Shown here piece by piece: positions 5,559-35,446 of a DNA stretch of 64,000 nucleotides. The DNA lies in assembly GCA_043781375.1 (NCBI GenBank), contig JAYWBP010000038.1, positions 40,001 through 104,000 on the forward strand, written 5' to 3'. A program made the position numbers and the translations under genes. Under the pieces are notes generated by a model that searched no databases, was not told the DNA's origin, and worked only from the letters and a program-made list of their open reading frames with translations. The DNA comes from Novosphingobium sp. (GTDB lineage: Bacteria > Pseudomonadota > Alphaproteobacteria > Sphingomonadales > Sphingomonadaceae). Position 1 is the first letter of the stretch. Each line of letters starts with the position of its first letter.

Positions 5559-5559
5559 G

Positions 5560-5901: not shown

Positions 5902-5902
5902 C

Positions 5903-9538: not shown

Positions 9539-9548
9539 GATTGTGACC

Positions 9549-10157: not shown

Positions 10158-10184
10158 TCTTGCACGTACACTGGAGACCTTACC

Positions 10185-10955
10185 ATGCGTTTTTCGGCAA
10201 CTCTGCTTCTCCTCGCAGGCCTCCTGTGCGCGCCGGTTCAAGCGCACGAGGCGCATCGCAAGATGACCGCACGCGATATCGTTGCGAAGGCTATCGAGCA
10301 GGCGGGGGGGGAAGCCTGGCGCGGTGCCAGGACTATGCACATGAAGGGCATTGCGACGCTCTATCGTGGTGGCACGTATGACAAGGTGACCGAGGCGACG
10401 CGCTATGAAATGTGGCGCGTCTATGCCGCAGCCAACAACAATGCGCATCAGGCCAATGGCAAATTTCGGCTCGATAGCGAAAAAGACGGCCATATCCTTT
10501 TCCAATCCGCTTTCGACGGGCAACAGGCGTATGACGCAAACGGGCCCATCGCCAACGCTGATGACGGCCGGCGCGACGAATCCGGTGCTTACGGATTTGG
10601 GATCATTCGCTTCGCCCTGAACGAAGGCTTCAAGCTTGAGCGATTAGCCGACGACCAGGTTGAAGGTAATCCCGCGCAATTCGTCAAGATTACCGACCCG
10701 ACGGGTGGGGTAACAATTTTCGGTGTCGACATGCGGGATTATTCGATCCGCACTGTCGAGTACGACACGTCGCGCGGCTGGCACCAGCGGATTTATTCGG
10801 ACTTCGAGACCAAAGCCAACCCTGGCTTTCGCCAGGCAACGCGGGTCAGGTTCTACTATAACGGCGTGAAGACTGTCGACGCCAAGTGGCAAACGTGGAC
10901 TGTGAATGAGCCAATATCGGATACGGTTTTCGAGTTGAAGAAGACTGCCAAGTGA
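10185..10955 (+). CDS. Exported hypothetical protein (possibly LolA-like beta fold)
   Basis: Signal peptide, GGAGA RBS, AIEQAGGEAW N-terminal motif, beta-rich; fold is inference. Confidence 0.7.
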   Translation: MRFSATLLLLAGLLCAPVQAHEAHRKMTARDIVAKAIEQAGGEAWRGARTMHMKGIATLYRGGTYDKVTEATRYEMWRVYAAANNNAHQANGKFRLDSEKDGHILFQSAFDGQQAYDANGPIANADDGRRDESGAYGFGIIRFALNEGFKLERLADDQVEGNPAQFVKITDPTGGVTIFGVDMRDYSIRTVEYDTSRGWHQRIYSDFETKANPGFRQATRVRFYYNGVKTVDAKWQTWTVNEPISDTVFELKKTAK

Positions 10956-11004
10956 GCACTTGCGTCGCGGCTGAAACACAGAAAAGACAAACCGAGCCCG
11001 GTTG

Positions 11005-11240
11005 ATACCAAGTCCCTTGGGCTCTGACTCAACACGGGGTTTTCCCAAGCGGCGATGATCTGATTCAACATCGCAAGCTGCAGGAGGTTTGCGCGGGCGG
11101 TGCTTTACGATGGCGGCGCTTTACGATGGCGGCGCGAGACACGAAGCGGCGCGATTCGGCGGCGTTGGCTTGCAGACGGTTCGGGACTGGGTTTTGCGGC
11201 TCAATGCCCAAGGCCCTGACGGCTTGCTGGACGGTAAGTG
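11005..11240 (+). mobile_element. IS630-family transposase remnant
   Basis: AALYDGGARHEAARFGGVGLQTVRDWVLRLNAQGPDGLLDGK matches the IS630 N-terminal HTH; truncated. Confidence 0.8.
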
Positions 11241-11329
11241 GCGCGATAATCATGGCCACCTTCAGGCAGAAACTTCACTCAACAAACTGTTATCCGGTAA
11301 AGTGCGGTCGCGGCGGCACGGCCGCGCTG

Positions 11330-11593
11330 GATGCCATTCGCAGCATAATCTCTGACCCGGCGAGGGGTAAATTCACCGCGCGAGTTGAAGCACATCCTGC
11401 CGTGAATGTTCCTCGTGAACCGGTCGCCCAATATTTCGTCGGCGCGTTCATGGCCGTTGTGGTCTGGTGGCTTGACGGAGGTGCAAAGCGCGCACCCGCT
11501 CAAATCGAAGAAACATTTTGGCGCCTGCGCTCGGGGGCTGGCGTGGGCCAAATGGTTCCGATCGACCTAACCCGGTTCCAAAGGGGCAGCTGA
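11330..11593 (+). pseudogene. TetR/AcrR regulator C-terminal fragment
   Basis: VPREPVAQYFVGAFMAVVVWWLDGG...QIEETFWRL with no N-terminal HTH; next to the IS630 remnant. Confidence 0.5.
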
Positions 11594-11697
11594 GTAGTAT
11601 AACCTTCACGCATAAACTCTTGATCACACGTCAGTTGTCTTTCTAACGTCATCGCCACATCCTCAACTCGACAAAATAGACCTTGGGGAGGTTCGTC

Positions 11698-18886: not shown

Positions 18887-19084
18887 AACTGCGTGGCGGT
18901 GCTGTCAGTCGGACGGCAACAGGTCTCCGCTGAACGCACTGAGGCCGCAAACGGCCTCTCGGCCCGAACCGCTTCCACCAGTGCCACACCATCTCATGAC
19001 ATATGTCGACCCCGACGCCCGATCAGTGTCATTGCAGCCTTGCGCTTCCCAATTGTTATACCGGAACTCGAACACGGCCAGACA

Positions 19085-19352
19085 TGCTCAAACATAGTGC
19101 CAACCTTGCCCGTGAACTGGCCCTTGCAGTGGCCGCAACGGTGCAGGCCAACACGAATGCGCGTGGCCGGGTTCGCTTTAACGGTGGTCAGGCGATCCAC
19201 AGTGCGGACAGACCATGCCGACCCAGATGATCTTTTCCAAGTGGGCGAAGGCCGCTTTTTCGCTCTGGAACTCGGGGCGGGAAAGGGCAGACATTGGCTT
19301 TAATCCTGATAAACGCCATACCGTCACCGTGTTTGCACGGTATATAATCGCC
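19085..19352 (-). mobile_element. Degenerate IS1595-family element (one end plus zinc-ribbon fragment)
   Basis: From ATG 19294: MSALSRPEFQSEKAAFAHLEKIIW..VCPHCG, then frameshifted RVGLHRCGHCKGQFTGKVGTMFE; probable end GGCGATTATATAC at 19352. Confidence 0.8.
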
Positions 19353-19437
19353 AAACCTTTGGGGTGTATCCCCTTAGCATACGTGAATCGGTGGTTCAGG
19401 TTGTGTTAGCGTCGCAGCCGCTAAATCCGGGGGAATT

Positions 19438-20373
19438 ATGGCTACGCTGACGCTCACTGATAGACCCCCGATTGCCCCTAAGGCTGACTTCGGTTTCGAG
19501 ATCGATTTTGTTCGGGGGGTTGGTCCAGCGTCGCGTGTTTTTCTGGCGACCCACGACTTCATAAAGGCTTGCGAGAGGCTCGATGATGAGCTGGTGCTGT
19601 CGATTGATTCGAACATCGAGACGGTGCTTGTCCTTGAAGACATCGAAGCCGGGTCAATCAAAACGTGGCTTCGCAATGGCCTAACCGCTGTCGAAGACGA
19701 TGCCCTGAAAGCGCTCGATTGGAAGCCTCTCGTTGGCAAGTATCTGGTGCGCGCCAAGTATGCCGTCATCCGTTGGATCGATGATGACGCGACGCCGCGA
19801 AGCCTGACGGATTTGCGGCGCGAAATTCAGCAGATCGCGGCGGACACCGATGTGCGCCACCTGCCCGATTACACCGCCCCGTCGCCCGGAGCGTTAATTA
19901 CGGCGATAAAAGACTTCCAGGCAGTGAAGGGCCGGTTGCTCCCCGGCGACACGGCTACCCTGTTAACCGAAGACGGCAATATCCCTTTCGATTTGTCCGT
20001 GATTCTGAACATCGAAGACATTGAGGCACTTGCGGTCGCGCGCACCATCCCAAACCCGCCAGTAGAGATGATCCTGCCCGTCAAGAAGCCCGACTATCTT
20101 GGCGAAAGCATGTGGGAGCTTCGTCACGGCAAGCGGAACATAAGCGCTAGGATCGAACATCAAGATTGGCTTCGCAGGTTTCAGCAGCGCCAAGTGGACG
20201 TTAGGCCCGGCGATGCGTTGCGGTGCGTCGTGGCAATCGAAACTTTATATGGGTTCGACAACGAACTTCTGGCTGAGCGGTTCACCGTCACCGAAGTTCT
20301 CGAAGTGATGATGAATCGCTTTGTGATCCTTGATCTGCCCTTTGAGGAAGGTGCCAATGACAAACCTGCGTAA
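19438..20373 (+). CDS. Hypothetical protein, IS passenger
   Basis: Intact 311-aa ORF with GGGGGAA RBS lying wholly inside the IRs; no family recognised. Confidence 0.85.
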   Translation: MATLTLTDRPPIAPKADFGFEIDFVRGVGPASRVFLATHDFIKACERLDDELVLSIDSNIETVLVLEDIEAGSIKTWLRNGLTAVEDDALKALDWKPLVGKYLVRAKYAVIRWIDDDATPRSLTDLRREIQQIAADTDVRHLPDYTAPSPGALITAIKDFQAVKGRLLPGDTATLLTEDGNIPFDLSVILNIEDIEALAVARTIPNPPVEMILPVKKPDYLGESMWELRHGKRNISARIEHQDWLRRFQQRQVDVRPGDALRCVVAIETLYGFDNELLAERFTVTEVLEVMMNRFVILDLPFEEGANDKPA

Positions 20374-20527
20374 AGCCCGCGAAGAGGGCAAGCTGGACCA
20401 GTTCGCAGCCGACCGGGAAGCCGACGCTCCCGGCGACGAAGAGGCGTTTAACCGCGCTTTGCAGTCAATGTCCGGAACGTCGAAAGCAGTTCCGGAAGCA
20501 TTGTCTCCGCCCGATTGCGACGATTGA
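20357..20527 (+). CDS. Small acidic hypothetical protein inside the IS
   Basis: GAGGAAGG RBS; overlaps the passenger stop and, antisense, the transposase 3' end. Confidence 0.45.
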   Translation: MTNLRKAREEGKLDQFAADREADAPGDEEAFNRALQSMSGTSKAVPEALSPPDCDD

Positions 20528-21358
20528 AGCGATACTCAAATTCCTTGACGTAGCGGCCAAGGTATTTGGGGCTGACGCTGGTGTGGGTGCCGTTGATCGA
20601 GCATTTGAGGTGACGCCAGAAATTCTCGATCCCGTTGACTGAAACGACCTCTGCGAGCCGGTAATCGTAATAGGCATACTCTTCCGCGCCGTGGTTGACG
20701 GTCACATGGCGATAGCCCTCCGCGCCAAGGCTCTTGTAGCTGTTCAGTTCGTCGGTGTGGACGATCCCGCCAGTCTGGACGTTGGCGATCACGAAAGGCT
20801 GTAGCGTCGAGCGGCGCTGATTGGGACAACAGCGGTGATAACGTCGCCGCCGCGCTGTAGCGCCCCGACAACGACCGTCTTGGCGTGTGAGCCGCGATTG
20901 TGGGTTCCCTTCTTGACGCCGCCGAACAGGCTTTCGTCTATCTCGACGTTCGTGCCGGGTCCGCCGATGGGGCGTTCGCCGTCAACATCGGCCATGTGCT
21001 GGCGGATCAAGCCAGTCATGCGCCAAGCCGTCTTGTAGGTGACGCCAAGCTGGCGCTGCAATTCCTTGGCGCTGACACCGTGCCGCGTGGTGGTGAACAG
21101 GTGGATGCCATAGAACCAAAGCTGCAAAGGGGTGCGGGTCTGCTGGAACGGTGTTCCAACCGTGGGGTGCAAATGGTGGCCGCACCACTGGCAGGAATAG
21201 GCCCGCTCCGCCTTGATGCGGAACCATTTGGACGGGCGCTCGCATGACGGGCAAGTGAAGCCCTGCCCAAAGCGAACCTCAAACAGGTGCTGAAGGCAGG
21301 TTTCGTCGTCCGGAAACTTGCGGAAGAAGGCGGTGGTGGTGAAGGGCTTCGTGTCCAT
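20448..21358 (-). pseudogene. IS1595/ISXO2-like transposase, frameshifted
   Basis: CPSC/CQWC zinc ribbon, GVSAKELQRQLGVTYKTAWR HTH, DDE motifs VEIDES, IVHTDE, NGIENFW; one missing base near 20823-20825 splits it. Confidence 0.92.
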
Positions 21359-21630
21359 GCACCATCATATAGGCGCGTGGATTACGTATGTCAAGGGGAT
21401 ACACCCCAAACCTTTGTAAACGCTCTCGATTTAGCGGTTAATCCGTTAATTATATAATTGACGGAAACGTCAAGCACCTAATTACCTTAACTACGATTAA
21501 TCCTGATTGCGAATTTGTCCTTATTTAGGTCAGTTAGAAAATTAACCATGTTTGTATACTGACAAGCTTTTTCGCGTGATCTAGCGCCGTTGTGGGCATC
21601 AGCCTGAAAACGAAAATCCAGGAGAAGAAC

Positions 21631-21810
21631 ATGCGCGATCTCAACATTGATGAACTTGAACAGGTCTACGGCGCTGGCGGAAGCGGAAAGTGCGGTTGCG
21701 GTTCTTCGCCGACACCTCCGTCGGGCGGGAGCAAGTCCAAGTCCAACAAGTCGAAAACCAAGAGCAAGAAGTCCAAGTCGCGCAGCCATGGCTCCAAGGG
21801 CTACTGCTGA
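21631..21810 (+). CDS. Putative RiPP/bacteriocin-type precursor, double-glycine leader plus Lys/Ser-rich core
   Basis: AGGAGA RBS; 59 aa MRDLNIDELEQVYGA|GGSGKCGCGSSPTPPSGGSKSKSNKSKTKSKKSKSRSHGSKGYC; leader fits the L-x-x-x-E-L-x-x-V-x-G-(G/A) pattern; C39 exporter nearby. Confidence 0.85.
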   Translation: MRDLNIDELEQVYGAGGSGKCGCGSSPTPPSGGSKSKSNKSKTKSKKSKSRSHGSKGYC

Positions 21811-21840
21811 ATCTTTTGCGCCAACGCGTAGAAAATATTG

Positions 21841-21862
21841 AGGGCGGGGTAACTCCCGCCCT
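21841..21862 (+). terminator. Stem-loop after the precursor gene
   Basis: AGGGCGGG-GTAACT-CCCGCCCT, followed by only a weak U-tract. Confidence 0.65.
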
Positions 21863-21882
21863 TACTGTTAGGTAAGATACGC

Positions 21883-22890
21883 ATGTTATGTATGCGTCCT
21901 GAAACCCATGGTGGCCAGGAACATAACTTGCAGGAAATCCGACAGCACTCCCAGAAAAGCAGCGGGTTTGCAGACGCAGACCAAGACCATCTGGATATGG
22001 TCTGGCTTCTCGGGCAACCACATCTGCAGGATTTTCTTTCTTTCTGCGAAACCAAGGTGGTTGGTGGCGAGCAAATGGACCCGCGCGGGCTTGCCGAAGA
22101 ATGGCGCGCTGCGAACGATTTTTATGGTGAGCTGGAGAAAACTGAAGCGGGCATTGCCGATACCATTGACTGCCGACCTTTGGATGGCCGACTTGCCCGA
22201 ATGGCATCGGCGTTGGAAGCCAGTAACTGGTTCCGCACTTCATTCGACAATCTGCCCTACTCCATCGAACTCGTCGAACTGGACAAGCTGGTAGTTTCGC
22301 AAATTCAGGTCGAGTGCGGATATGCGCACGGAATTGCGGCCAGGTTGGGTAAATGTCCATCGCCAGCTGAGCTGTTTCGCTTTTGTTTGCCGCTTAAGCG
22401 CGAGCTTCCGCCTGTCGCAATCAAGCGCCTTGCCTCCAATCGCTACCAGTTTACATCGCCCTCCAGCGACTTTCGCCAGCACGACCCCATGTTGCTGCGC
22501 GGGGCGGACATTGCCGATCTCGATCTGCCTGGGGCAGCAGTTGCGTTGCTTGGCATTTCGGTGGGCTTTGGCTCGAATTTGATGAGCGGCATCCGCAGCG
22601 GCAATCGCGTGTTACTGCAGAACGGTTACCACCGGGCCTATGCACTGCGCAGTGCAGGCGTTACGCACGCTTGGTGCGTGATCGAGCTTGTGACCCGAAA
22701 GGACGAATTGCGTCTGACGGCCACCGAGGGTGTGTTGAGCGATCCGGAATTCTATTTTGCCGCAAAGCGACCGCCGATCCTGAGCGACTATTTCACTCCG
22801 CGGATCGCAAAGCGGCTGCGAGCAAAACGCATGGAATGTCTGGTCGAATTGGAGATCAAGGTCCGAACGTCTACCGTCACTTCGGTCTAG
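21883..22890 (+). CDS. Uncharacterised protein with ParB/sulfiredoxin-like motifs; candidate peptide maturase
   Basis: LVELDKLVVSQ and RVLLQNGYHRAYALRSAGVTHAWCVI (GxxRxxA); start uncertain. Confidence 0.75.
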   Translation: MLCMRPETHGGQEHNLQEIRQHSQKSSGFADADQDHLDMVWLLGQPHLQDFLSFCETKVVGGEQMDPRGLAEEWRAANDFYGELEKTEAGIADTIDCRPLDGRLARMASALEASNWFRTSFDNLPYSIELVELDKLVVSQIQVECGYAHGIAARLGKCPSPAELFRFCLPLKRELPPVAIKRLASNRYQFTSPSSDFRQHDPMLLRGADIADLDLPGAAVALLGISVGFGSNLMSGIRSGNRVLLQNGYHRAYALRSAGVTHAWCVIELVTRKDELRLTATEGVLSDPEFYFAAKRPPILSDYFTPRIAKRLRAKRMECLVELEIKVRTSTVTSV

Positions 22891-22900
22891 GGGGAACCGG

Positions 22901-23620
22901 TCACAGTTCGGATGATAGCCAACCTGTAACGCTGAATCGGCGCCTGGGAGCCGCACGTGTTACCATCGATACACTGTGATAACGCGGAATCGAAAACAGA
23001 TCGAGCGTGTTGAACTGGGGTATCAGTCCGGCGCAATCCACGCCGCCGAGTTCATGGAACAATAGTAATCCGCCCCATTCGAGGCGCCATTGCGGAGTAA
23101 GACCCAGGACAAATGCTACCTTGCGACCCGAGCTGGCAAGGTCGTCGTCATGGCCCGTCAGGAAATCACCCGCGCCATAAGCCGTTACCTGGCCGTCGGT
23201 GAAATCCGGCGAGCTCACGCCTGTCACCGCTTGCAGCGCGGCAAGCATCGGCTGGCTGCGCATCAGTGCTGAAATTTCCGCCAGAACAGGATCCTCGCAA
23301 ACCTCCCCAGAAACCGGGATTCGCAGCGCGGCATAACTGTATTGAAAGCCATTGCATGCCCTGGCGAAAATGCCTGGCTCCAATTCACTTCGCGAACGGG
23401 ATCCGGGCAGGTGCCATTCCCTCCACGGGACTTCGTGCGCCCCGGCATCATGATTTGCCAGCTGGACCCAGTATTCGTTGCCCTCCAGATAGTGGTAAAG
23501 TTCCGGCGCGCCGGCTGCGAAAACGTGTTGGATCCGCACCCGGCCGTCACGAAAAAATTGTTCGCGCAGGCTGACAAGGTCGAGCTCCGGATTGAGCGTG
23601 AGAAGACGAAGTTCAGTCAC
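22901..23620 (-). CDS. 2OG-Fe(II) oxygenase (prolyl/lysyl hydroxylase-like)
   Basis: FLTGHDD (HxD), WGGLLLF, YHSVS (distal His), RRFSVTGW (2OG-binding Arg). Confidence 0.9.
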   Translation of the reverse strand: MTELRLLTLNPELDLVSLREQFFRDGRVRIQHVFAAGAPELYHYLEGNEYWVQLANHDAGAHEVPWREWHLPGSRSRSELEPGIFARACNGFQYSYAALRIPVSGEVCEDPVLAEISALMRSQPMLAALQAVTGVSSPDFTDGQVTAYGAGDFLTGHDDDLASSGRKVAFVLGLTPQWRLEWGGLLLFHELGGVDCAGLIPQFNTLDLFSIPRYHSVSMVTRAAPRRRFSVTGWLSSEL

Positions 23621-25776
23621 AGGCGCAGCCTTGTTGCTGCCGGATATTGAAACTGGGCCAGCGGGCTCGGCCGCACTTTGTTTTCGATGCGCTCAACTTT
23701 TCCGCCTTCGACATGCAGAACAATATCAGCCAAATCGACCAGCGCCGGGCGGTGCGAGATGGCGACCCGCGTAATCGGCATCACGGCAATGGCTCGGGCT
23801 ATGATATCCTCCGTCTTCACATCCAGATTGGCAGTGCCTTCGTCGAGCAGAAGGACATCGGGATCGCGATAGAGCGCGCGCGCCAAAAGAATTCTCTGGC
23901 GTTGGCCCGACGAAAGTGCGGCGCCCATGTCGTTCACAAGGGTGTGATAGGACATCGGCATCTTGGCGATGTCGTCATGAACCCGCGCGAACCGAGCGGC
24001 GGCTTCGATGGCTTGGTTGTCAGGTTGAGGATGGAAGAAGCTGATATTGTCCGCGAGCGTGCCGGAGAGCAGGTAATCGTCCTGCAATACCGCCCCGATG
24101 CGCTGTCGCCATGACGCCATGGTTGATCCGTTCAGTGCCAGATCATCGATTTCGATTGTGCCCGATTGCGGGGTCAACAGTCCCAGCAGCAGCCTCATCA
24201 ATGTCGTCTTTCCAGCGCCGGAGGGGCCGACAATGGCGACCAGGCTTCCTGCGGGAATATCGAAATTCACCCGGTCCAGCACTGCTCCGCTGGCGGTGTC
24301 ATAGGCGAAGGTCAGGTTGCTTACCCGAATTGCCGGAGCGATGCGGCTGGGACGATGCTGGGGCGTGACGGTCAGCACTTCCTTTTCTTCGCCGACAATG
24401 TCTGACAACCGTTCGAGATGAACGCTCAGCAGCCGCCACTTCTGCCATTGTTGGACCAGCGAGGTGGCGCTCGTTGCAAAGCTGCCGCGATAGGACAGAA
24501 AGGCCAGCAAAAGTCCCACAGACAACTTTTGGGATATTACGGCAAGTGCACCGAAATAGACTGTGAGCAGGAAGGAAACACTGAAAATTGCATCCTCCGC
24601 AAATGCCAGCTTCACGCCGATCATCCGCGACTTGTAAGTAGCCGAAATGACCTCGGCATAGCGGTTGCGCCATCCGCTTTCGCGCATGGTTTCAAAGCTG
24701 TGCAATTTAATTGCCCGCATCGCGCGTAAGGATTCCATCTGATAGGATTCCTCCTGCGCACGAGCGACGATTTCTTCTTCGGTCCGCGCCCTCATGGCGG
24801 GATACATGACCTGTGCGAGCACCAGATAGGCTAGGGTGCAACAGAACACGATCGCCGTGAGCTGAACGCTGATCACCAGCATCACCAACAGTGTGGCGAC
24901 CAGCAATGAGGTGTCGATTAAGGAATCGACCAGTCCACGCGTCAGCAGTGTCTGAATAGGCTGGATCGAGCCGATGCGCGACAGGATGTCTCCCACGTGC
25001 CTGCGCTCAAAATAGGACATGGGTAATCGCAGCAAATGACGGACAATGTTTCCGCCAAGCTGGAAAGTCAGCGATTCACCAAGGCACAAAGTGACCCAGC
25101 TGCGCAGCATGCGCGTAACGGCCTGCAGCCCATAGATGAAGCCGAACCCGACAAGCAGCAAAGTGAGCAGGCTGGAATCACCCTGATTCACCCCCTCGTC
25201 GATCACCAATTGAATGAAGAAGGGTACGGCCAGTGCCGTGACCTGAACCAAGAGAGAAAGCAGAATTATCTGGCTCAACGCGGAACGGAAATTTGTCAGG
25301 TTGCTCCACAGGTCTGACAATCGTGTCCGCACTTTGGCGTTGATCGGCTTGAAGTCGGACGTGGGCGCAAGTTCGAGCGCTATGCCGGTGAAGTGTTGCC
25401 CCAGTTTGCCAAGCGCCATCCGTCTGCTACCGCGAGCTGGATCGAGGATCGTTGCAACACCGCGTTCGACTTTCTCCAGAATCACGAAATGGTTTAGGTC
25501 CCAGTGGAGGATCGCTGGAAGCTGGAGGCAGTCGAGTTCATCCACTTCGAGCCTCACCGCGCGCGCGGTGAGGTCGAGGTCGGAGGCAACGCCGATCAAC
25601 TGACGTAATGTCGTGCCCTTGATCGAAGAGGGAAAGCGCCGACGCAAACCAGCCAAGTCGAGCCTGTGACCATGGTAGCGTGCGACCATGGTTAGGGCAG
25701 CAAGCCCGCACTCAGCCGCCTCGGACTGCAGAACGCAGCGCATACGCTCGTTCCATGGCCATTCGAAGGATGCCAT
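23617..25776 (-). CDS. Peptidase C39-containing ABC transporter (CvaB/RaxB-like)
   Basis: QSEAAECGLA (catalytic Cys), LHWDLNHFVIL (His), GPSGAGKT, LSSGQRQR, LLLDE; start ATG 25776 overlaps the HlyD stop (TAATG). Confidence 0.96.
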   Translation of the reverse strand: MASFEWPWNERMRCVLQSEAAECGLAALTMVARYHGHRLDLAGLRRRFPSSIKGTTLRQLIGVASDLDLTARAVRLEVDELDCLQLPAILHWDLNHFVILEKVERGVATILDPARGSRRMALGKLGQHFTGIALELAPTSDFKPINAKVRTRLSDLWSNLTNFRSALSQIILLSLLVQVTALAVPFFIQLVIDEGVNQGDSSLLTLLLVGFGFIYGLQAVTRMLRSWVTLCLGESLTFQLGGNIVRHLLRLPMSYFERRHVGDILSRIGSIQPIQTLLTRGLVDSLIDTSLLVATLLVMLVISVQLTAIVFCCTLAYLVLAQVMYPAMRARTEEEIVARAQEESYQMESLRAMRAIKLHSFETMRESGWRNRYAEVISATYKSRMIGVKLAFAEDAIFSVSFLLTVYFGALAVISQKLSVGLLLAFLSYRGSFATSATSLVQQWQKWRLLSVHLERLSDIVGEEKEVLTVTPQHRPSRIAPAIRVSNLTFAYDTASGAVLDRVNFDIPAGSLVAIVGPSGAGKTTLMRLLLGLLTPQSGTIEIDDLALNGSTMASWRQRIGAVLQDDYLLSGTLADNISFFHPQPDNQAIEAAARFARVHDDIAKMPMSYHTLVNDMGAALSSGQRQRILLARALYRDPDVLLLDEGTANLDVKTEDIIARAIAVMPITRVAISHRPALVDLADIVLHVEGGKVERIENKVRPSPLAQFQYPAATRLRL

Positions 25777-27005
25777 TAGCTGAAAGTTTCCAAAATCGGC
25801 CCAAGCAATATCTGCCATAGGTTACGGCGCTCAAGCACCAGCTTGCCGGACAGCGTCATGCCTTGCCGCATCGAACCAATATCGACCTTTGTGCGCGGCG
25901 AGAACTTGACGATGTTGGCCCTGATGCGAAAAACCGGCTCATCGAACTTAAGACCCGGATCAACATTCGACGGTTCAGTTGGCACTTTGGCGATTTCGGT
26001 GACCAAGCCCTCGCTCGTACCGAACTTCTCATACGGGAAGGCATCGAATTGCAGGCGTACCTGCTGTCCCGCGCGCGCGTTGCCGACCGCCCGCGAAGGA
26101 GCATAGAGCCAAATTTCGAGCTTGCTGCCTGAAGGGATAACCGTGGCAGCTGCTCGCGCCGGGGTCGCCTGCTGGCCGACTTCCACGCCGATGTCGCCCA
26201 CGGTTCCTGCCACAGGGGCGGTGAGTACAATGTTCCCGGTGCGCGAAAGCTCAAACTGCTGCTGCGCCAGCACCGCCCGTTGAACGATCAAGACTGATTG
26301 GGTCCGCTGGGCTTCCAGCTGCCGCCGACTTTGGTCTGCTTCATTTGCGCGCAAAGCATTGCGCTGGACGATTACCTGCTCACCCAACCCCTCCAGTTCT
26401 GCCCGTCGGGTAAGCAATGCTGATCGGCTATCCTCGACCTGTCGCTGCGTTCCTGCCCCTTCTTTCGCCAGACGTTCGGCGCGAAGGGCTGCGGATTCTG
26501 CAAGTCGAATCTGGGCAGCAGCAATTGCGTGCTGTCGCTCCAGCGAGGCAATGGCCGCCATTAGCCCGCCATGTTGTTCGGCGAGCGCGGCGACTTCGGA
26601 ACTTGCCTGGTCGGCTGCCAGTCCGACTTGCCGCCCCAGCTCTGAATCCTGGTTGCCCATCTGATTGAGCTGTGGCGAAATTCCGCCCTGGCCTTGCGCG
26701 ATCGCCAACGTGACGAGCGCCTGTCCTGCCTCCACATGCTGTCCACTTCTGACGTGAATGGCACTCACTTCGGCAGCCGATCGCGGGTAGACTCGTGCGA
26801 TTCCGCCATCGTAAGCGACTATCCCGCGCACATCTGCGGTCATCGAAAAATGCCCAAACATCAACAACGCCAGGAGCAACAGTGCAGCCACCGCGACGAG
26901 ACGCGTATAGAGGCGCGACGACGGCGGAACGGCAGCGATCACCGTCCCGGTCAACCGATTACGGCTTGCCTCAATAACCTCGTTTCGGAAAAGTCGATCT
27001 GCCAT
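25776..27005 (-). CDS. HlyD-family membrane fusion protein (CvaA/RaxA-like)
   Basis: LFRNEV N-terminus, TM segment, coiled coil, LTAPVAGTV, FDAFPYEKFG. Confidence 0.95.
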   Translation of the reverse strand: MADRLFRNEVIEASRNRLTGTVIAAVPPSSRLYTRLVAVAALLLLALLMFGHFSMTADVRGIVAYDGGIARVYPRSAAEVSAIHVRSGQHVEAGQALVTLAIAQGQGGISPQLNQMGNQDSELGRQVGLAADQASSEVAALAEQHGGLMAAIASLERQHAIAAAQIRLAESAALRAERLAKEGAGTQRQVEDSRSALLTRRAELEGLGEQVIVQRNALRANEADQSRRQLEAQRTQSVLIVQRAVLAQQQFELSRTGNIVLTAPVAGTVGDIGVEVGQQATPARAAATVIPSGSKLEIWLYAPSRAVGNARAGQQVRLQFDAFPYEKFGTSEGLVTEIAKVPTEPSNVDPGLKFDEPVFRIRANIVKFSPRTKVDIGSMRQGMTLSGKLVLERRNLWQILLGPILETFS

Positions 27006-27155
27006 TTACCCCGACATCGCGCTAAGTGCTGAATTAGAGCAATTAAACGCTAAGCCTGAAAACTAGGTAAAGATCGTGTGAACCATAAGGTTCGACTGCC
27101 AAGGCGTCTCATTGATAGTCAACCAATCTTAACCACTCCGGGCTAATCCCCGGAT

Positions 27156-28541
27156 ATGCAATCAGTCCGCATAGTACCGATGATGGCATTTCTCCTGACG
27201 GTCGGTGCCTGTGCGCCGACCGCACAGGTTACTGGGCCGCCGTCGCTGGCCTCTGCTTCCTGGAGTGGCCAGGTCGAAGCCAGCGGACCGATTAAAGCTC
27301 CGCTTGCCGAATTGTTGAATGCGCCTGAATTGCAAGCGCTGACCGCTCTGTCGTTCAAGAATAACAGCGACATCCGGCTTGCGAGAGCGCGCGTTGAGCA
27401 ATCTCACGCGCTGCTGCGCGCTGCCCGTCAGGCAACCTTGCCGCAAATATCACTAGCCGTCGGCGCCAATAGGCGCTTCGAAAAGGCAGGAAGTAACGCG
27501 CTTGATTTCAGCGATGCGTTCGCGCGCCTGGATGTGGACATCGAGCTGGATATTTTCGGGCGGCTTAGCGCCGGCAAGCGTGGGGCAATCTCCCGGGCAC
27601 GCGCCACCGAACTGCAACGCGATGCTGTTGTTCTTGCCATCGAAACCGATGTTGCATCAGCATTTGTGCAGCGCGCCGCCATTGCCAGGCGGATTGCCAT
27701 TCTGGATAAGAATATTGATCGTGCGGTCGAACTCGAGCGGGTGATCCGCGTTCGTTTGGCACAAGGCGCCGCGACACGCGTGGATCAGGGATTGCAAACG
27801 ATCAGGCTGCTAAATCTGCGCGAAGAAGGATCGCGCATACGTCAGGCGCTGGATCAGACGCGAACGGCATTGGCGATTCTGACCGGAGCGGAAGCGCCGC
27901 AATTCTCTGTGGGCACGGCAAGCGTGGATACGATTGTCGTGCCTCAGCTTTATCCCGCCCCGCCGCGGGATTTGCTGGCAGCCCGCCCCGACGTGCGGGC
28001 ATCGGAAGCGCGGATCCAAGCGGCAAAGGGCGATGTGAGCCAGGCACGAGCCGCCTTCTACCCCCAGATTAGCCTCAATGCGCAGTCTATGCTCAATTCG
28101 GCAGCCTCCGGACCGCTGGGCACCAGCTTAAACCTGAGCTCGGCATTGCTGGTACCTATCTTCAGCCGCGAGCGATTGCTGAGCGCGTTCCAATACGCGT
28201 CAGCCGTGCAGCTCGAAGCCGTTGAACGGTTCCGCCAGACGATCCTAAATGCCCTCGCCGAAGTGGAGGATGCGCAAAGCGCACGACAGCGGTCAGCAGA
28301 ACGGGCGAAGCTGCTTGATGCCATAGTAGAAGAAGCGCACCTCACCGCTCGTCTCGCTAATGTTCAATATATCGAAGGTGAAGAAGATATACAAAATGTC
28401 CTGAATGCAGAAACCGCGATGAGTAATGCTGAGGACGCCCAAGTCATTAGTTGGCAAGAACGCTTGTTTGCACAAATTGCGCTATACCGTGCAATGGGCG
28501 GATATCAAAAGCAAACCCGTTTATCCCCAACACCCATCTAA
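27156..28541 (+). CDS. TolC/NodT outer membrane efflux lipoprotein
   Basis: Lipobox VGAC, ELDIFGR, LLAARPDVRA, ARAAFYPQI, LYRAMGGG. Confidence 0.93.
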   Translation: MQSVRIVPMMAFLLTVGACAPTAQVTGPPSLASASWSGQVEASGPIKAPLAELLNAPELQALTALSFKNNSDIRLARARVEQSHALLRAARQATLPQISLAVGANRRFEKAGSNALDFSDAFARLDVDIELDIFGRLSAGKRGAISRARATELQRDAVVLAIETDVASAFVQRAAIARRIAILDKNIDRAVELERVIRVRLAQGAATRVDQGLQTIRLLNLREEGSRIRQALDQTRTALAILTGAEAPQFSVGTASVDTIVVPQLYPAPPRDLLAARPDVRASEARIQAAKGDVSQARAAFYPQISLNAQSMLNSAASGPLGTSLNLSSALLVPIFSRERLLSAFQYASAVQLEAVERFRQTILNALAEVEDAQSARQRSAERAKLLDAIVEEAHLTARLANVQYIEGEEDIQNVLNAETAMSNAEDAQVISWQERLFAQIALYRAMGGYQKQTRLSPTPI

Positions 28542-28584
28542 CGAGGCGTTTTACCGCTGATGGCTGGACGACATTCCATATGCA

Positions 28585-28745
28585 GGCACTGTCAGACCAA
28601 ATGCACGGGGATGATGATCTGAAGTACCCCCAGAGCCTCAGGAACGCCGAAGATCTTCTCTTTGAACGTGGGATCGACTTCTGCCATGAACCTGTGCGGC
28701 TGTGATGGCACAGGTTCGGTCCGCTGTTCGCGGCGGATAACCTGC
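28585..28745 (+). mobile_element. IS6-family remnant
   Basis: End GGCACTGTCAGACCAAATG followed by KYPQSLRNAEDLLFERGIDFCHEPVRL*WHRFGPLFAA. Confidence 0.85.
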
Positions 28746-28909
28746 GCCACGCCCTAGGGACTGTCTGCGTATCGAAGCGCGGTGGTCTGCATAGAGGCCA
28801 GCAGCTCACCGGACAAACATCGGGACCGGTGGTAAAATCCACCATCAAAGGCCCAAGACATGACCGCACCTGCTCCTCTCCCTAACCCGAGACAAAGTCA
28901 GTACGTTGA

Positions 28910-29944: not shown

Positions 29945-30694
29945 TCAGCCCTCCCATTCCGCATTTCCGTCAACACCGATGATCTGCCCGGTCACATGGC
30001 GCGCCGCGTCTGAGGCCAGGAACCAGGCGGTTTCGCCGATCTCGTCAGGCTGGATCTTCGTGCGCATCGAAATGTAGCCCAGGGCCTCGGCCTCGACCGC
30101 TTCGGTACTGCGCCCGCTTTCCTCGGAGATGCGCGCCACGATCCCGCGCATCCGCTCAGTATCCATGAAGCCGGGGCGGATCGCGTTGACCCGGATTCCG
30201 TCGGGCCCCAGCTCACGTGCCAAATTGCGGGTCAGACCTTCCAGCGCCCATTTCGACGCGACATAGGCGCTGCGGCCAGGAATGCCGGTGACGGTCGAAG
30301 CGGTGGAGATGTTGATGATCGCGCCGCCGCGCGCCGCGCGCATCGCGGGGACAGCGGCGGCGATGGTATGGAACGCGCCGTGGACGTTGACCGCGAAGCA
30401 GCGCGCCCATTCGCCGGGATCGGTTGTCTCAATCCCGCCGACTGGCCCGGCCACTCCGGCATTGTTGACGAGAACGTCGATCCGCCCGATTTCCGCCACC
30501 AGTGCAGCAACACTCAGCGGATCGGCGACATCGGCCTTGATGGCAGTCAGACCCGGGATTGCCGCGCGAGCCCGGTCCAGCGCCGCGCTATCCACGTCGC
30601 ATACTGTAACTCTGTCGCCCCGGCCGGAGAACATCCCGGCGATGGCCAGGCCGATCCCGGCGGCGCCAGCGGTGACGAGGACCGCGCGGCTCAT
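29945..30694 (-). CDS. SDR family oxidoreductase
   Basis: TAGAAGIG, NNAG, YVASK. Confidence 0.93.
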   Translation of the reverse strand: MSRAVLVTAGAAGIGLAIAGMFSGRGDRVTVCDVDSAALDRARAAIPGLTAIKADVADPLSVAALVAEIGRIDVLVNNAGVAGPVGGIETTDPGEWARCFAVNVHGAFHTIAAAVPAMRAARGGAIINISTASTVTGIPGRSAYVASKWALEGLTRNLARELGPDGIRVNAIRPGFMDTERMRGIVARISEESGRSTEAVEAEALGYISMRTKIQPDEIGETAWFLASDAARHVTGQIIGVDGNAEWEG

Positions 30695-32454
30695 GCCATG
30701 GTCTCGCGCGCAGCGGCAGTCTCAGCGAGCGCGGGGGAACCGTCTGCCGCCAAAGTTACGCCATAGACGTTGCGCGCGCGCTCGGCGCTGAGCAGCCCGG
30801 CCAGGACATCGGCGGCGACCAGTTCCGCCGCGCGCTTGCTGGGCGGACCATAGCCGCCACCGCCACAGGATATGGCAAGGATCCGCTCCCCCTCGGCGAT
30901 GCGCACTTGGGTACAGGCCGGCAGCGCGCTGACCGAGCCGTCGCGCGCAATCAAGTACTGGTCGGCCGGACCGCCAGCGCCGCCACCGCGCACGCCAAGC
31001 GGTGGGTTCTCACGGCCATCGGACAGGTAGCCGATATCGATCGCGCCACCGATTGGTCCGAACTCAACGATGGTGGACGGCGCGCCTGTGGTGGTCCCGG
31101 CGCCTTCGGTATCGGCAAGGAACGCGCGGCGGTGGACCATGATCGGCTGGGCGAGTTCGGCCAGTTCGACGCCGTCGATGCAGCACAGCCCGGCGTTGCC
31201 GACATGGCCGATAGTCCACCAGGCATCGCTGGTTGGGCTGGCAGCGCCGCCACTCATCGCCAGGAAGATCTGGTTGACGAAGGGTTCGGCGGTGCGGGGG
31301 TCGATGCCCGAGATCACCCCGGCCGAAGGTGCGATCACCGATCCGACCTCCGCCATCCCGACCTTGTCGGACAGGCCAGCCAGCGCAGTCTGCACGCTGT
31401 TGGCCACGCGGTCGGCGATGTTGGTTGTCGCTGCCGAACAGGAGAAGGGATGGACCGGGATTCCCGCAATGCAGCCTTCGCGCAGCAGCACCTCGATCCG
31501 CCGGAACGATCCGGCATTCTTGGGCACGCGGTGATCGATGCTGTTGAACACGCCGATCATGGCCGCCGTGCGCGAGCAGGCCTCAGAAAGGTTCATCCCA
31601 CAGGGCAGGCAATCGGGATTGCCGGTCAGATCGACTGTTACCTTGCCCGCGCCAGGATCGACCTCAACGGTCGAGACGATCTTCAACCCTGCTGCCGGGA
31701 GGCCCGGAAAGGCATCGTGAGTGCTGGTGCCGGTGACCGTTCCGGCAGGCAGCGCGCCAATAGCCTCGCTCGCGACGGCTTCGGAATAATCGAACCATTG
31801 CTCCGCAAAGGCATCGAGCCGATCCCAGCCCACTTCGGCGGCAAGCTGGGTCAGCGCACGCTCGCCGATCCGGGCCGCGCCGATGGTGGAGAGGTAGTCA
31901 CCGTGCCACTGATGCGGCACGCGGATCCGCATCAGGCACATGCGGACGATATCGTCGATGTCCTGCCACTCGCGCTGGACCTGCACCGCGGGAAAGATCA
32001 GTGCGCCTTCGTGATACACGTCGCGTGCCTCGGCCATGTAAGTGGTCGGCTGCGAATTGCCGATATCGGCTTGGTGCGCCTTGGCCAGCACGGTGAAGCG
32101 GTGTCGGCCTTCATCGTCCATCACCGGCACAATCACGCTAAGATCGGCGGCGTGCGAACAGCCATGGTAGGGGGAATTGTGGAGGAAGGCATCCCCGGCG
32201 CGCAACTGCGGATGGAACTGCATCATCGAACGGGCCATCAGATCGGGACCTGACAGGACGTGGATTGGCAGGCTGTCGGCCGCGGTTAGCAGATCGCCGG
32301 TCCGGGTCAGCAGACAGCACGAAAAATCTCGCGCCCGATTGAGGACGCCCGAGCGACCGGTGCGCAGCAAGGTGTTGCTCATCTTGCGGACGACACCATC
32401 GAGTCGGCTGTTGAGCACGGCCATCTCGGCGCCGTTGCGGGGAGCTTCGGTCAT
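30691..32454 (-). CDS. Hydantoinase B/oxoprolinase family subunit
   Basis: ARDFSC, GDAFLHNSPYHGCSH, AHQADIG, GGGGYGPP; start 32454 (ATGA overlap). Confidence 0.92.
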   Translation of the reverse strand: MTEAPRNGAEMAVLNSRLDGVVRKMSNTLLRTGRSGVLNRARDFSCCLLTRTGDLLTAADSLPIHVLSGPDLMARSMMQFHPQLRAGDAFLHNSPYHGCSHAADLSVIVPVMDDEGRHRFTVLAKAHQADIGNSQPTTYMAEARDVYHEGALIFPAVQVQREWQDIDDIVRMCLMRIRVPHQWHGDYLSTIGAARIGERALTQLAAEVGWDRLDAFAEQWFDYSEAVASEAIGALPAGTVTGTSTHDAFPGLPAAGLKIVSTVEVDPGAGKVTVDLTGNPDCLPCGMNLSEACSRTAAMIGVFNSIDHRVPKNAGSFRRIEVLLREGCIAGIPVHPFSCSAATTNIADRVANSVQTALAGLSDKVGMAEVGSVIAPSAGVISGIDPRTAEPFVNQIFLAMSGGAASPTSDAWWTIGHVGNAGLCCIDGVELAELAQPIMVHRRAFLADTEGAGTTTGAPSTIVEFGPIGGAIDIGYLSDGRENPPLGVRGGGAGGPADQYLIARDGSVSALPACTQVRIAEGERILAISCGGGGYGPPSKRAAELVAADVLAGLLSAERARNVYGVTLAADGSPALAETAAARETMA

Positions 32455-34511
32455 GGTCGAACCTCGATCAAAAGAGTGCCTCCGTCGGTCCGCCGCATCC
32501 GCGAACCCGGATCGACGACGACGGTAGTGAAGGCCGATTCCACGATCGCCGGGCCTTGCCGATCGGCCCCCTTGGGAATCGCTTCCCATTGCAGCACGGG
32601 AGTTTCGACCCAGCCGCTGCCGGCAAAAAACACTCGGCGTGGCGCTGGATCGGAGCGTTCACCCGCAGCTTCGGCTAGACGGAAACCGGTGTCGGGCCTG
32701 GCGCGGCAGCGAACCCGGGCGCGCAACCCAATCAGTTCCACCAGCGAAGTCTCGTCGCGCACCGCGAACAGCTGCTGGTGGACATCGTCGAAGGTCCGGC
32801 GGAACGCGGCGACTTCGTCGTCGGTGGAGAACCCGGACGAGGCCAGCGGCACGTCGATATCCCAAGCCTGCCCGACATAGCGCGCCTCGGCGACGAATTC
32901 GACAATTCCGGCCAGCCCGGCACGGGCGGCGAAACGCTCAGCCTTGGCCTCAAGCCCCGCCAGCGCGACGTTGACGCGGGCGGTATCGAAAGCACCTGTG
33001 GACGTATGCACGGTCACCGCGAATTCGCTGGTGATGTCAGACAGTAATGCTCCGGCGGCGCTCATCGCCGCGCCAGTCTCGGGTATCAGCAACTGCCGAC
33101 AGCCGAGCCGCCGGGCGACGAATACCGAATTCAGCCCGGCCCCGCCACCACCGCCGATCAGCAACGCCTGAGAAGGGTCGATGCCCTGGTTCAGGGTCTG
33201 CTCCTCGATCGCCTGGACCATGTTCTCGGTCGCCAGGTCGAGTATCGCCCAAGCCGCTTCCTCGAGCGAGATTTCCAGCGGTCCGGCGATGTCATCGAAG
33301 ATCGCCCGGCGGGCCAGCCCAGCGTCCAGCGGCATAGCCCCGCCCAAGAAATAGGCCGGGTCTATATAGCCCAGCACAACCGCCGCATCAGTCACCGTCG
33401 GGCGGTTGCCGCCGCGGCCATAGCAGGCAGGCCCCGGGGTCGATCCGGCGCTATCGGGACCGACATGGAGCAGTCCGGCCTTATCGACCACAGCAATGCT
33501 GCCTCCGCCCGCGCCGACGCTCTTGACGTCGACCGAAGGATATCCTGCCAGGTGCCCGCGATAGGGCTCGCCGATCCACAGGTCGCGGGTCATCGGAATG
33601 CGGCCCTGCGAAACCAGGCTGATGTCATAGGTGGTGCCGCCGGTGTCGGCGATGATCGCGGTGTCCCAGCCGCCCTCCCGGTTGGCATAGTACCGCCCCG
33701 CGACCGGCGCCATGGATGGCCCCGAATTGATCACCCTGATCGGCGAAGCGGCAAGCTCGGCGGCATCGACCATGCCGCCAGCGCTGGTCAGGACCATGAC
33801 CTTGCCAGCATAGCCGGTATCGGCCAACCGCTGCGCCAGCCCATCGAGATAGCGCGTCATCAACGGCTTGAGTGAAGCATCGATCGCGGTGGAAGACGCG
33901 CGGCGGAATTCGCGCAGGGTGGGGTTGACCTGATGCGACAGGCTATAGGGAGTGCCCGGCAACTGCTGCGCGATCAATTCACCAATCCGCAGCTCGTGGC
34001 AAGGATCGAGCGTGGCCCATAGCAGGGTCACAGCCACCGCCTCAACACCCGCCGCACAAGCGGCCTGGAGCGCGGCGATGACCGCATCTTCGTCGAGCGG
34101 GATAGCGATACTGCCGTCCGAGCGAATGCGTTCGGGCACTTCGTAGGTCAGGCGGCGAGGGATATATGGCTTGGGGTAGGGGACGGTGTGGTTGAACGGC
34201 TCGCTGCGCCCGCCCTCGCGGAATAGCAGGATGTCGCGGTGGCCCGCCGAGACGATCAGAGCGGTGGGCGCGGTGCGTCCGGTAATGATCGCGTTGATCG
34301 CATGGGTGGTGCCATGGACGAAGCTGGTTGCGCGGCCCAGCAGTGTTCGCACGTCGATTCCGCGTGCATCGGCCGCTACGCGCAATGCATCGAGCACACC
34401 CGCGACCGGATCGGCCGGCACGGTCGGTGCCTTGTGCAAAGTGATCGAGCCGTCGTCCTCCTCAACGATCAGGTCGGTGAAGGTACCGCCGGTGTCGGTT
34501 GCCAAGCGCAT
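32451..34511 (-). CDS. Hydantoinase A/oxoprolinase family subunit
   Basis: DTGGTFTD, HGTT, DTGGTTYD, GAGGGSIA, GPACYGRGG; start ATG 34511. Confidence 0.93.
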   Translation of the reverse strand: MRLATDTGGTFTDLIVEEDDGSITLHKAPTVPADPVAGVLDALRVAADARGIDVRTLLGRATSFVHGTTHAINAIITGRTAPTALIVSAGHRDILLFREGGRSEPFNHTVPYPKPYIPRRLTYEVPERIRSDGSIAIPLDEDAVIAALQAACAAGVEAVAVTLLWATLDPCHELRIGELIAQQLPGTPYSLSHQVNPTLREFRRASSTAIDASLKPLMTRYLDGLAQRLADTGYAGKVMVLTSAGGMVDAAELAASPIRVINSGPSMAPVAGRYYANREGGWDTAIIADTGGTTYDISLVSQGRIPMTRDLWIGEPYRGHLAGYPSVDVKSVGAGGGSIAVVDKAGLLHVGPDSAGSTPGPACYGRGGNRPTVTDAAVVLGYIDPAYFLGGAMPLDAGLARRAIFDDIAGPLEISLEEAAWAILDLATENMVQAIEEQTLNQGIDPSQALLIGGGGGAGLNSVFVARRLGCRQLLIPETGAAMSAAGALLSDITSEFAVTVHTSTGAFDTARVNVALAGLEAKAERFAARAGLAGIVEFVAEARYVGQAWDIDVPLASSGFSTDDEVAAFRRTFDDVHQQLFAVRDETSLVELIGLRARVRCRARPDTGFRLAEAAGERSDPAPRRVFFAGSGWVETPVLQWEAIPKGADRQGPAIVESAFTTVVVDPGSRMRRTDGGTLLIEVRP

Positions 34512-34513
34512 CG

Positions 34514-35446
34514 TCAGAAGCCCACCGCATCGCCACCCTTGAGACCCAGCATTTCCCGCGCCTCTGCCGGGGAGGCGACTTCGATGTCGAGCGCATCGAG
34601 GATGCCGCGCAATTTGATCACCTGCTGGGCGTTGCTCTGGGCAAGTTCGCCCTTGGAAATGTATAGGCTGTCCTCCAGTCCGCACCGCACGCTGCCGCCG
34701 ATCAGCGCGCATTGCGCCAGAAACTTCATCTGGGGGCGCCCGACGGCAAAGCAGGAGAGCAGGTAATCCTCGCCGAACAGGCGATCTGCGGTCTGCTTGA
34801 AGACCATGAAGTTTTCCAGGTCCGCGCCCATTCCACCCAGGATCCCGAAGATGCCCTGGATCAGGAAGGGCGGCTGGATCAGCCCGGCATCGGCGAAATG
34901 CTTGACCGTGTAGAGGTGGCCCAGATCATAGCATTCATATTCGAAGCGTGTGCCGTGGCCCTGGCCCAGCTCAACCATAATCCGCTCGATCAGCGCAAAA
35001 TTGTGGTTGGCTGGGAATTGCCTGGACCCCACCATCAGCTCGCGCTCCCAGGCGTGCTTCCATTCGAACTTGTCGGCTAGGCCGAAGAAGCCGAAATTCA
35101 TCGATCCCATGTTGAGCGAGGTCATTTCGGGCTTGGCGCGCAGGGGGCCGGCCATGCGGTCGTCCTCGCTGAACCCGGGGGCGCCGCCCGTGGTGATGTT
35201 GATTATCGCGTCAACCGATTGTTTGATGTGCGGCAGGAACTGCATGTACAATTCCGGATCGGGCGAGGGTTTGCCGTCGGCCGGATCTCGCGCGTGGAGG
35301 TGGAGGATCGCTGCCCCCGCCTCAGCCGCGGCGATGGCCTGCTCGGCGATCTGCGCAGGAGTGATCGGGAGGTAGGGCGACATCGAGGGGGTGTGGATCG
35401 ATCCGGTCACCGCACAGGTGATGATCGCCTTGCTGGTCTTGCGCAT
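34514..35446 (-). CDS. Beta-keto acid cleavage enzyme (BKACE/DUF849)
   Basis: IITCAVTGSIHTPSMSPYLP, ILHLHARD, SLNMGSMNFG, VRCGLED; start ATG 35446 with AGGAGA RBS. Confidence 0.93.
   Translation of the reverse strand: MRKTSKAIITCAVTGSIHTPSMSPYLPITPAQIAEQAIAAAEAGAAILHLHARDPADGKPSPDPELYMQFLPHIKQSVDAIINITTGGAPGFSEDDRMAGPLRAKPEMTSLNMGSMNFGFFGLADKFEWKHAWERELMVGSRQFPANHNFALIERIMVELGQGHGTRFEYECYDLGHLYTVKHFADAGLIQPPFLIQGIFGILGGMGADLENFMVFKQTADRLFGEDYLLSCFAVGRPQMKFLAQCALIGGSVRCGLEDSLYISKGELAQSNAQQVIKLRGILDALDIEVASPAEAREMLGLKGGDAVGF

Follow-up and report, generated by a model that had tools for sequence, protein, structure and literature searches.

The window examined here, a 64,000-nucleotide stretch of Novosphingobium sp. 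DNA (contig JAYWBP010000038.1, positions 40,001–104,000), contains a six-gene cassette for a leader-bearing Ser/Lys-rich peptide, a 335-residue protein with a predicted ParB/sulfiredoxin (Srx) fold, a 2-oxoglutarate (2OG)-Fe(II) oxygenase, and an exporter with a C39 peptidase domain. Analysis of related loci revealed a real, conserved, and apparently undescribed peptide system. It is probably of the kind in which a peptide that is made ribosomally and modified post-translationally (RiPP) is exported by an ATP-binding cassette (ABC) transporter that contains a peptidase (PCAT), and it would form a new class should the ParB-fold protein be catalytic. All six open reading frames (ORFs) listed for the cassette in a first-pass annotation of the DNA are present, spanning 21631–28541:

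21631–21810, + strand: precursor peptide gene (59 residues), with a strong ribosome-binding site upstream
21841–21862, + strand: G+C-rich stem-loop between the precursor gene and the 335-residue protein gene (from folding)
21883–22890, + strand: gene for the 335-residue protein, predicted ParB/Srx fold, candidate maturase (NGYHR motif at residues 247–251)
22901–23620, − strand: 2OG-Fe(II) oxygenase, candidate prolyl hydroxylase for SPxxP (PF13661 above cut-off)
23617–25818, − strand: C39 peptidase-containing ABC transporter (C37/H110/D126 and Walker motifs intact)
25776–27005, − strand: HlyD-family periplasmic adaptor (family models)
27156–28541, + strand: outer-membrane factor, OEP family, NodT-like (family models)

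The cassette is composed of three units on two strands rather than a single operon, with the outer-membrane factor gene diverging from that of HlyD, and the intergenic gaps across the six genes, all ≤150 nt, are too short to hold a further gene.

Recurrence of the Gene Set

Gene context was read at 112 loci anchored on the 335-residue protein (27 from GTDB genomes, the 80 top-scoring of 527 metagenome matches, four plasmids, and the window), a set that contains near-duplicates and is not one of independent loci. A precursor with the leader pattern E-[LIMW]-x-x-V-[YS]-G-[AG] was found within 3.5 kb of the anchor in 77 of the 82 loci with at least 600 nt of upstream sequence, and a C39 or HlyD gene in 71 of the 75 with at least 1500 nt downstream. 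Where long flanks were available on both sides (n = 43 loci), the C39 gene was present in 41 and the precursor in 42. One of the five loci with no pattern match has a Gly-rich variant recognizable by eye, and the other four have none in the upstream stretch that was read. The co-occurrence check that had been set beforehand, namely that homologs of the 335-residue protein should adjoin short Lys/Ser-rich leader peptides and C39 exporters, was therefore borne out. The gene order differs among loci, and among the carriers are Steroidobacter, Paracoccus, Rhodobacter, and Methylobacterium. In the tree, the nearest relatives of the window protein are Novosphingobium and Croceibacterium records, in keeping with a sphingomonad host. 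A search of 400 genomes by precursor alignment alone, with 15 candidates scored per genome, returned two matches, both repeating loci of the anchor set and both with the enzyme gene adjacent.

As judged from gene content, the constant part of the system is the precursor, the ParB-fold protein, and the C39/HlyD pair, with the oxygenase being optional. The two-enzyme set described in the first-pass annotation consequently holds for the window, where both genes are found, but not for the family as a whole, as the oxygenase occurs in 17 of the 27 GTDB loci and is tied to an SPxxP motif in the core.

A FemAB/FemX-like aminoacyl transferase is encoded in 12 of the 112 loci (L027, L067, L074, L075, L081–L085, L091, L103, and L124), four of which also encode an unnamed 220-residue partner; this transferase is a possible third tailoring option that would aminoacylate core lysines. 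In L123 (11335–13591) and L125 (11442–13549), located on Paracoccus and Rhodobacter plasmids, genes for a histidine kinase and a response regulator directly follow the exporter. Frameshifts are present in the ParB-fold gene of L020 (8001–8895) and in the C39 and HlyD genes of L004 (4886–8247), reflecting either decay or assembly error.

Leader and Core of the Precursor

The precursor, MRDLNIDELEQVYGAGGSGKCGCGSSPTPPSGGSKSKSNKSKTKSKKSKSRSHGSKGYC, is comprised of a 15-residue leader and a 44-residue core. The leader ends in Gly-Ala, rather than in the double glycine first assigned to it, and carries Leu(−12), Leu(−7), Val(−4), Gly(−2), and Ala(−1). According to PMC10885120, PCAT leaders end in GG, GA, or GS and have hydrophobic residues at −4, −7, and −12, a rule that the leaders of this family satisfy. 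The search pattern forced Val(−4), Glu(−8), and Gly(−2); Leu(−12) was unforced and yet is found in all 84 distinct precursors, as is Arg(−14), with Tyr(−3) in 80 of them. Arg(−14) falls outside the −4/−7/−12 determinants and, together with Tyr(−3), may be read by the maturase. Within the 3.05-Mb genome the leader pattern matches only once, at the precursor gene.

The core of the window peptide contains 13 Ser, 2 Thr, 10 Lys, 9 Gly, 3 Pro, and 3 Cys, and in it an SPTPP motif occurs together with Ser-Lys repeats and a C-terminal Cys. Across the 84 cores the composition is 24% Gly, 22% Ser, 20% Lys, and 7% Arg, with Leu, Ile, Val, Phe, and Met at ∼1%; the medians are +12 for net charge and 0.9 for the number of Ser/Thr per basic residue. 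No core is without Ser or Gly, whereas Lys is missing from 3, Cys from 11, and Pro from 31, and Ser, rather than Lys, is the modifiable residue present in every core. The dipeptide Ser-Lys occurs 381 times compared with 166 ± 10 in shuffled cores, with Lys-Lys and Ser-Ser depleted, and a Cys lies within the last three residues in 58 of the 84. Cores vary freely in the number and order of their repeats. With its conserved leader, variable core, and linked enzyme genes, the precursor corresponds at the sequence level to the general RiPP pattern.

Two precursor variants, in L094 (5300–6000) and L091 (1016–1357), are very Gly-rich, contain Tyr, and have few Ser residues. The collagen and His-Xaa-Ser matches returned for the precursor of one relative were taken as low-complexity matches.

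The 335-Residue Protein and Its Predicted ParB/Sulfiredoxin Fold

The 335-residue protein matches no Pfam, NCBIfam, or PADLOC family, and a Pfam scan of 107 relatives revealed no family common to them; its relatives number 1412 at the 50% cluster level. Sequence searches of the PDB returned 0 and 2 chance rows, and the named ESM Atlas matches (ParB-CE, PFIN, and ParB_N), all scoring below 0.8, serve as leads only. The structure prediction is confident, with a predicted local distance difference test score (pLDDT) of 87.7. The start of the gene is unsure, as the model shows residues 1–30 to be disordered and several homologs begin near Met39. In a VIA search of 48,161 chains, the eight best structural matches are all ParB/Srx proteins (Z 5.9 to 3.9; the first unrelated chain scores Z 2.6), including sulfiredoxin (Z 5.9, root mean square deviation (r.m.s.d.) 2.7, 94 residues aligned), SerK (Z 4.7, r.m.s.d. 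4.1, 102 residues aligned), and SbnI (Z 3.9). The N-terminal helical part modelled alone gave no match above Z 4.6. DNA polymerase beta rows returned by Foldseek were rejected (TM ∼0.1). The sequence profile meets those of Noc, Spo0J, SbnI, and SerK at the NGxHR motif (E 0.14–1.5), in which Gly248 and Arg251, corresponding to the GxxR phosphate-binding motif of the ParB/Srx superfamily, are present in 105 of 107 diverse members sharing 25–45% identity. Because the structural and sequence-profile signals, each weak, agree with one another, the ParB/Srx fold guessed at in the first-pass annotation was accepted for the model, on weak scores.

In SerK, SbnI, and sulfiredoxin, this fold serves as an enzymatic nucleotide module (PMC12704722). 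The window protein shares with them the predicted fold and the GxHR residues, with no DNA-binding domain detected (PMC5120207 and PMC12704722), but it has NGxHR in place of DGxHR together with extra helical and β-sheet parts, and lies far below the SerK cut-off. The SerK family model gave no match for the window protein, and the best of six distant relatives scanned reached 17.7 bits against a cut-off of 380; one of the six matches the model at E 0.0015. On these comparisons the protein is outside the SerK/SbnI family. The residues kept as the family's own are Trp74, Asp196, Arg198, Arg242, Arg296, and Asp302, and the N-terminal helical domain is acidic (17 Asp/Glu versus 8 Lys/Arg). No helix-turn-helix DNA-binding family is listed for the 107 members, no RiPP recognition element, which is common in RiPP systems without being obligatory, is listed by Pfam/NCBIfam or by the fold searches, and no parA was found among the six genes or the recurrent neighbor families scanned.

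In P0201 and P0191, the ParB-fold domain is fused behind a methyltransferase-like domain, accompanied in P0201 by a GT25 glycosyltransferase.

A Homolog beside a Lasso Peptide Operon

Four of 13 genomes from a single gammaproteobacterial genus (L116:7788–11699, L117:7921–11845, L137, and L138) encode a homolog that is 29–33% identical to the window protein, carries the same motifs, and lies head-to-head with a lasso A-B-C operon. The B2 model scores above its cut-off in this operon and the cyclase models below theirs; the B protein is fused, the precursor has a repeated leader segment, and its predicted core ends in Thr-Thr-Ser-Pro. This arrangement ties the ParB-fold family, through its gene neighborhood, to a second and unrelated peptide class, and makes the homolog a candidate for a new lasso tailoring enzyme.

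The Oxygenase and the SPxxP Motif

The oxygenase has an iron triad and a 2OG-binding Arg (His157-x-Asp159, His215, and Arg228), and its nearest solved relative is OGFOD1 (E 9e-7), a prolyl hydroxylase, as are EGLN-type enzymes. The PF13661 domain, the HxD…H motif, and the Arg are shared with OGFOD1/EGLN-type enzymes, from which the cluster enzymes differ in forming a dedicated clade within an oxygenase family that is widespread in sphingomonads (present in 46 of 151 genomes), the clade travelling with SPxxP leader peptides. An SPxxP core was found in 19 of 19 distinct assessable loci with the oxygenase compared with 3 of 51 without it, and the three loci fetched after the motif had been chosen all fit the same pattern. 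The cluster oxygenases form a single clade of 25 rows (SH-aLRT 99), whose sole member from outside the set adjoins an SPxPP leader peptide; in 27 other stand-alone oxygenase loci, no SPxPP leader peptide was found within 1.5 kb. The tree that gives the nearest relatives of the window protein and the tree for the independent contrasts both omit L002, L003, and L042, and the latter also omits L020. Since oxygenase and SPxxP co-vary, the enzyme on balance likely hydroxylates a proline of this motif.

A second precursor type, with SPxxP and no Ser-Lys repeats, has a leader ending in VSGA or VSGG and a KGNNGFGNG motif and is found mostly beside the oxygenase (L011:8981–9175, L126:3516–3698, L133, L170:13889–14110, L176, and L177). 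Five loci have it next to the oxygenase, one of them with no ParB-fold gene within 15 kb; in L170 both the ParB-fold and C39 genes are absent within 15 kb. For this reason the ParB-fold protein and the oxygenase look like separate modules, with the window peptide carrying the target motifs of both.

Export Machinery and Comparison with Known Systems

The catalytic Cys and His of the C39 domain were correctly described as retained, and the full triad (Cys37, His110, and Asp126) is intact in the window transporter; in the 64 family members whose C39 domain is covered, Cys, His, and Asp are kept in all. From what is known of the PCAT family, cleavage after Gly14-Ala15 and export of the core are very probable. 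The outer-membrane gene, first named TolC, does encode an outer-membrane factor of the OEP family, but it scores nearer the NodT type (TIGR01845, E 2e-54) than TolC (TIGR01844, E 2e-19), with both models below cut-off.

The system resembles RaxX/RaxSTAB of Xanthomonas in having a leader peptide of ∼60 residues, one modifying enzyme, a C39 transporter, an adaptor, and an outer-membrane factor in a Gram-negative host (PMC8872720), and differs in its ParB/Srx-fold enzyme, Ser/Lys-repeat core, linked outer-membrane factor, and optional oxygenase. No sulfotransferase family was found among the six genes, which places the peptide outside the sulfatyrotides. With the PCAT-exported double-glycine peptides, including class II microcins, it shares the GA/GG leader, the hydrophobic residues at −4, −7, and −12, and the intact C39 triad (PMC10885120, as above); it differs from them in a polybasic core that is not hydrophobic, in the lack of a recognizable small gene for immunity, and in a constant partner that resembles an enzyme. 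The earlier statement that no known class-defining enzyme is encoded in the cassette stands: LanB/C/M, YcaO, ATP-grasp, radical SAM, and lasso B/C families were absent from the six genes and from 30 neighboring proteins scanned, the rest of the genome not having been searched. On the enzymes of its cluster, the system is accordingly placed outside the lanthipeptides, LAPs, graspetides, radical-SAM RiPPs, and lasso peptides.

Proposed Pathway and Alternative Explanations

In the proposed pathway, the precursor would be made in excess in the cytoplasm, where the ParB-fold protein would phosphorylate the serines of the Ser-Lys repeats before secretion and the oxygenase would hydroxylate a proline of the SPTPP motif. 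The C39 transporter would cut after Gly14-Ala15 and the 44-residue core would leave via HlyD and the outer-membrane factor. To this reading as a whole, from serine phosphorylation and proline hydroxylation to cleavage and export of the Ser/Lys peptide, we assign a probability of about 0.45. Gene linkage and the predicted fold suggest that the ParB-fold protein probably modifies the core using a nucleotide, with phosphoserine as the product having slightly under an even chance. The role tentatively proposed for the peptide is that of an abundant extracellular polyampholyte binding surfaces, metals, or matrix. Composition is the sole ground for preferring it to a toxin or a signal: the cores are of low complexity, vary in length and order, have no hydrophobic residues to speak of, and carry close to one Ser/Thr per basic residue. 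Diatom silaffins, whose Ser/Lys repeats turn polyampholyte on phosphorylation, are eukaryotic and unrelated in sequence and offer an analogy for the product alone.

Several observations weigh against phosphorylation of the core by the ParB-fold protein, or against the wider scheme. Foldseek gave no match at E ≤ 0.001, and the VIA scores are all below Z 6 and individually weak. The motif is NGxHR in 102 of 107 members, with an Asp variant in three, whereas SerK and SbnI have DGxHR; the position that we take to be the catalytic Glu of SerK and SbnI is Gln140 here (Gln in 103 of 107), and a nucleotide preference cannot be read from the sequence. SerK itself phosphorylates Ser, but peptide serines are not its substrate (PMC5120207). 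The Ser-Lys counts are inflated by repeats and kinship, and because Gly is likewise present in all 84 cores, the universal Ser could reflect composition alone. The lasso link comes from one lineage, and L120, a 36% identical homolog on a viral contig, has neither precursor nor exporter. Context was read for 112 loci against 1412 family clusters, the metagenome part being the best 80 of 527 matches. As to the oxygenase, SPxxP was picked after the data had been seen, phylogenetically independent contrasts number only three (all concordant, p 0.25), and Pro is also present in 29 of the 51 loci without the enzyme.

Some of these points would suit a ParB-fold maturase with other nucleotide-driven chemistry, whether serine activation with subsequent elimination to dehydroalanine and cross-links to Lys or Cys, or transfer of a nucleotide monophosphate. 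The Asn that replaces the Asp of SerK/SbnI, the residues kept as the family's own, the frequency of Lys directly after Ser far above chance, and the Cys near the C terminus of 58 cores are all consistent with it. However, Lys and Cys are each missing from some cores (3 and 11, respectively), no lyase or cyclase family is present in the six genes or the recurrent neighbors scanned, and the solved enzyme relatives of the fold transfer phosphate, leaving this chemistry unlikely. A different view, and the main one in which the protein is non-catalytic, is that the peptide is a cationic microcin-like toxin, unmodified or only hydroxylated, with the ParB-fold protein providing immunity to it or acting as a chaperone that shields the cationic core until export. 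Immunity genes of class II microcins usually occupy the position that the 335-residue gene has here, the short gaps leave no room for a separate one, so that the ParB-fold protein could serve, and the median net core charge of +12 would be complemented by the acidic N-terminal helical domain. Such a role is nonetheless improbable: a phosphate-binding motif is kept across 107 members at 25–45% identity, the scarcity of Leu, Ile, Val, Phe, and Met is unlike membrane-active microcins, and one homolog is found with a lasso precursor that is unrelated and not cationic.

Whatever its chemistry, the peptide might instead act as a secreted signal that a sensor kinase perceives, and not as a structural or surface-binding product, as the two plasmid-borne kinase/regulator pairs and histidine kinases in L026 and L099 could indicate. 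The window cassette has no sensor, a recurring sensor is found in only a few of the 112 loci, and free variation in repeat number and order is more to be expected of a bulk property than of a receptor ligand, so that a signaling role is a still weaker prospect. Finally, the genes could have come together by chance in an insertion-rich island, with the ParB-fold protein acting in DNA partition or regulation unrelated to the peptide. Insertion sequences are present on either side, the L120 homolog stands alone, and phage ParB-like activators of DNA dioxygenases exist (PMC13229309). Nevertheless, this is largely refuted by the linkage (77 of 82 and 71 of 75 loci, in several gene orders); ParA was also lacking among the recurrent neighbors scanned, and the reading is highly improbable. 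Since most loci are without the oxygenase, the ParB-fold protein does not serve as its obligatory activator, and a ParB activator of the phage type was rejected.

Surrounding DNA and Probable Acquisition of the Cassette

Two mobile-element features flank the cassette:

19361–21407, − strand: IS1595 element, neighbor outside the system (inverted repeats, 8-bp target duplication, split transposase, passenger ORF)
28580–28750, + strand: IS6 transposase remnant, neighbor outside the system (∼170 nt, internal stop, E 0.068)

The cassette thus lies between IS1595 and IS6 sequences, as first described, but these do not form a composite transposon around it, which was ruled out since the IS1595 element is self-contained and the IS6 sequence is a remnant. 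The IS1595 element has 33-nt inverted arms and a transposase over two frames, and identical 8 bases flank it on both sides; from these and its own inverted arms, it inserted by itself. The cassette genes have 56–60% G+C compared with 63.6% for the genome, and of the 301 genomes of the family that were searched, 5 (the window genome counted) contain the 335-residue protein gene; on both grounds, lateral acquisition of the cassette is likely.

No match to a sigma-70-type promoter was found at the locus. In 50 of 76 loci the 70 nt 3′ of the precursor stop codon fold at z < −2 relative to mononucleotide shuffles, and the stem-loop likely raises precursor mRNA over enzyme mRNA.

The passenger gene of IS1595 (19438–20373) scores above the NF053583 (LAPAL motif) cut-off and has a weak PADLOC match to PDC-S42, and older IS1595 transposase fragments at 18994–19354 mark the insertion site of the element, the ends of which are intact. 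Further away, the window contains at least six TonB-dependent receptor genes (229–14349 and 38703–60676) and a hydantoinase/oxoprolinase pair (30691–34712).

Implications

No description of the peptide system or of a ParB/Srx-fold maturase was found in the literature searched, although subscription papers, unseen supplements, and large datasets could hold one. The boldest reading, somewhat less likely than not, is a new RiPP class with a leader-guided ParB/Srx-fold enzyme, the first of its fold known to work on peptides, acting as a poly-Ser phosphotransferase or Ser-activating cross-linker, in an unnamed family of more than a thousand clusters that would also tailor lasso peptides, with a plug-in prolyl hydroxylase and secreted bacterial silaffin-like phospho-Ser/Lys polyampholytes as products. 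RiPP classes take their names from maturases, and a ParB/Srx-fold maturase would found one. The pairing of the ParB-fold protein with Ser-Lys and of the oxygenase with SPxxP gives sharp mass predictions, for which cultured carriers such as Novosphingobium aquae, Sphingomonas psychrolutea, Blastomonas RAC04, and Methylobacterium nodulans exist. If the proposed activity is true, the enzyme would be a compact, core-tolerant tool for multiple phosphorylation of designed peptides. More broadly, if the ParB-fold protein modifies peptides, the ParB/Srx fold would gain a new activity and ∼1400 unannotated clusters would gain a function.

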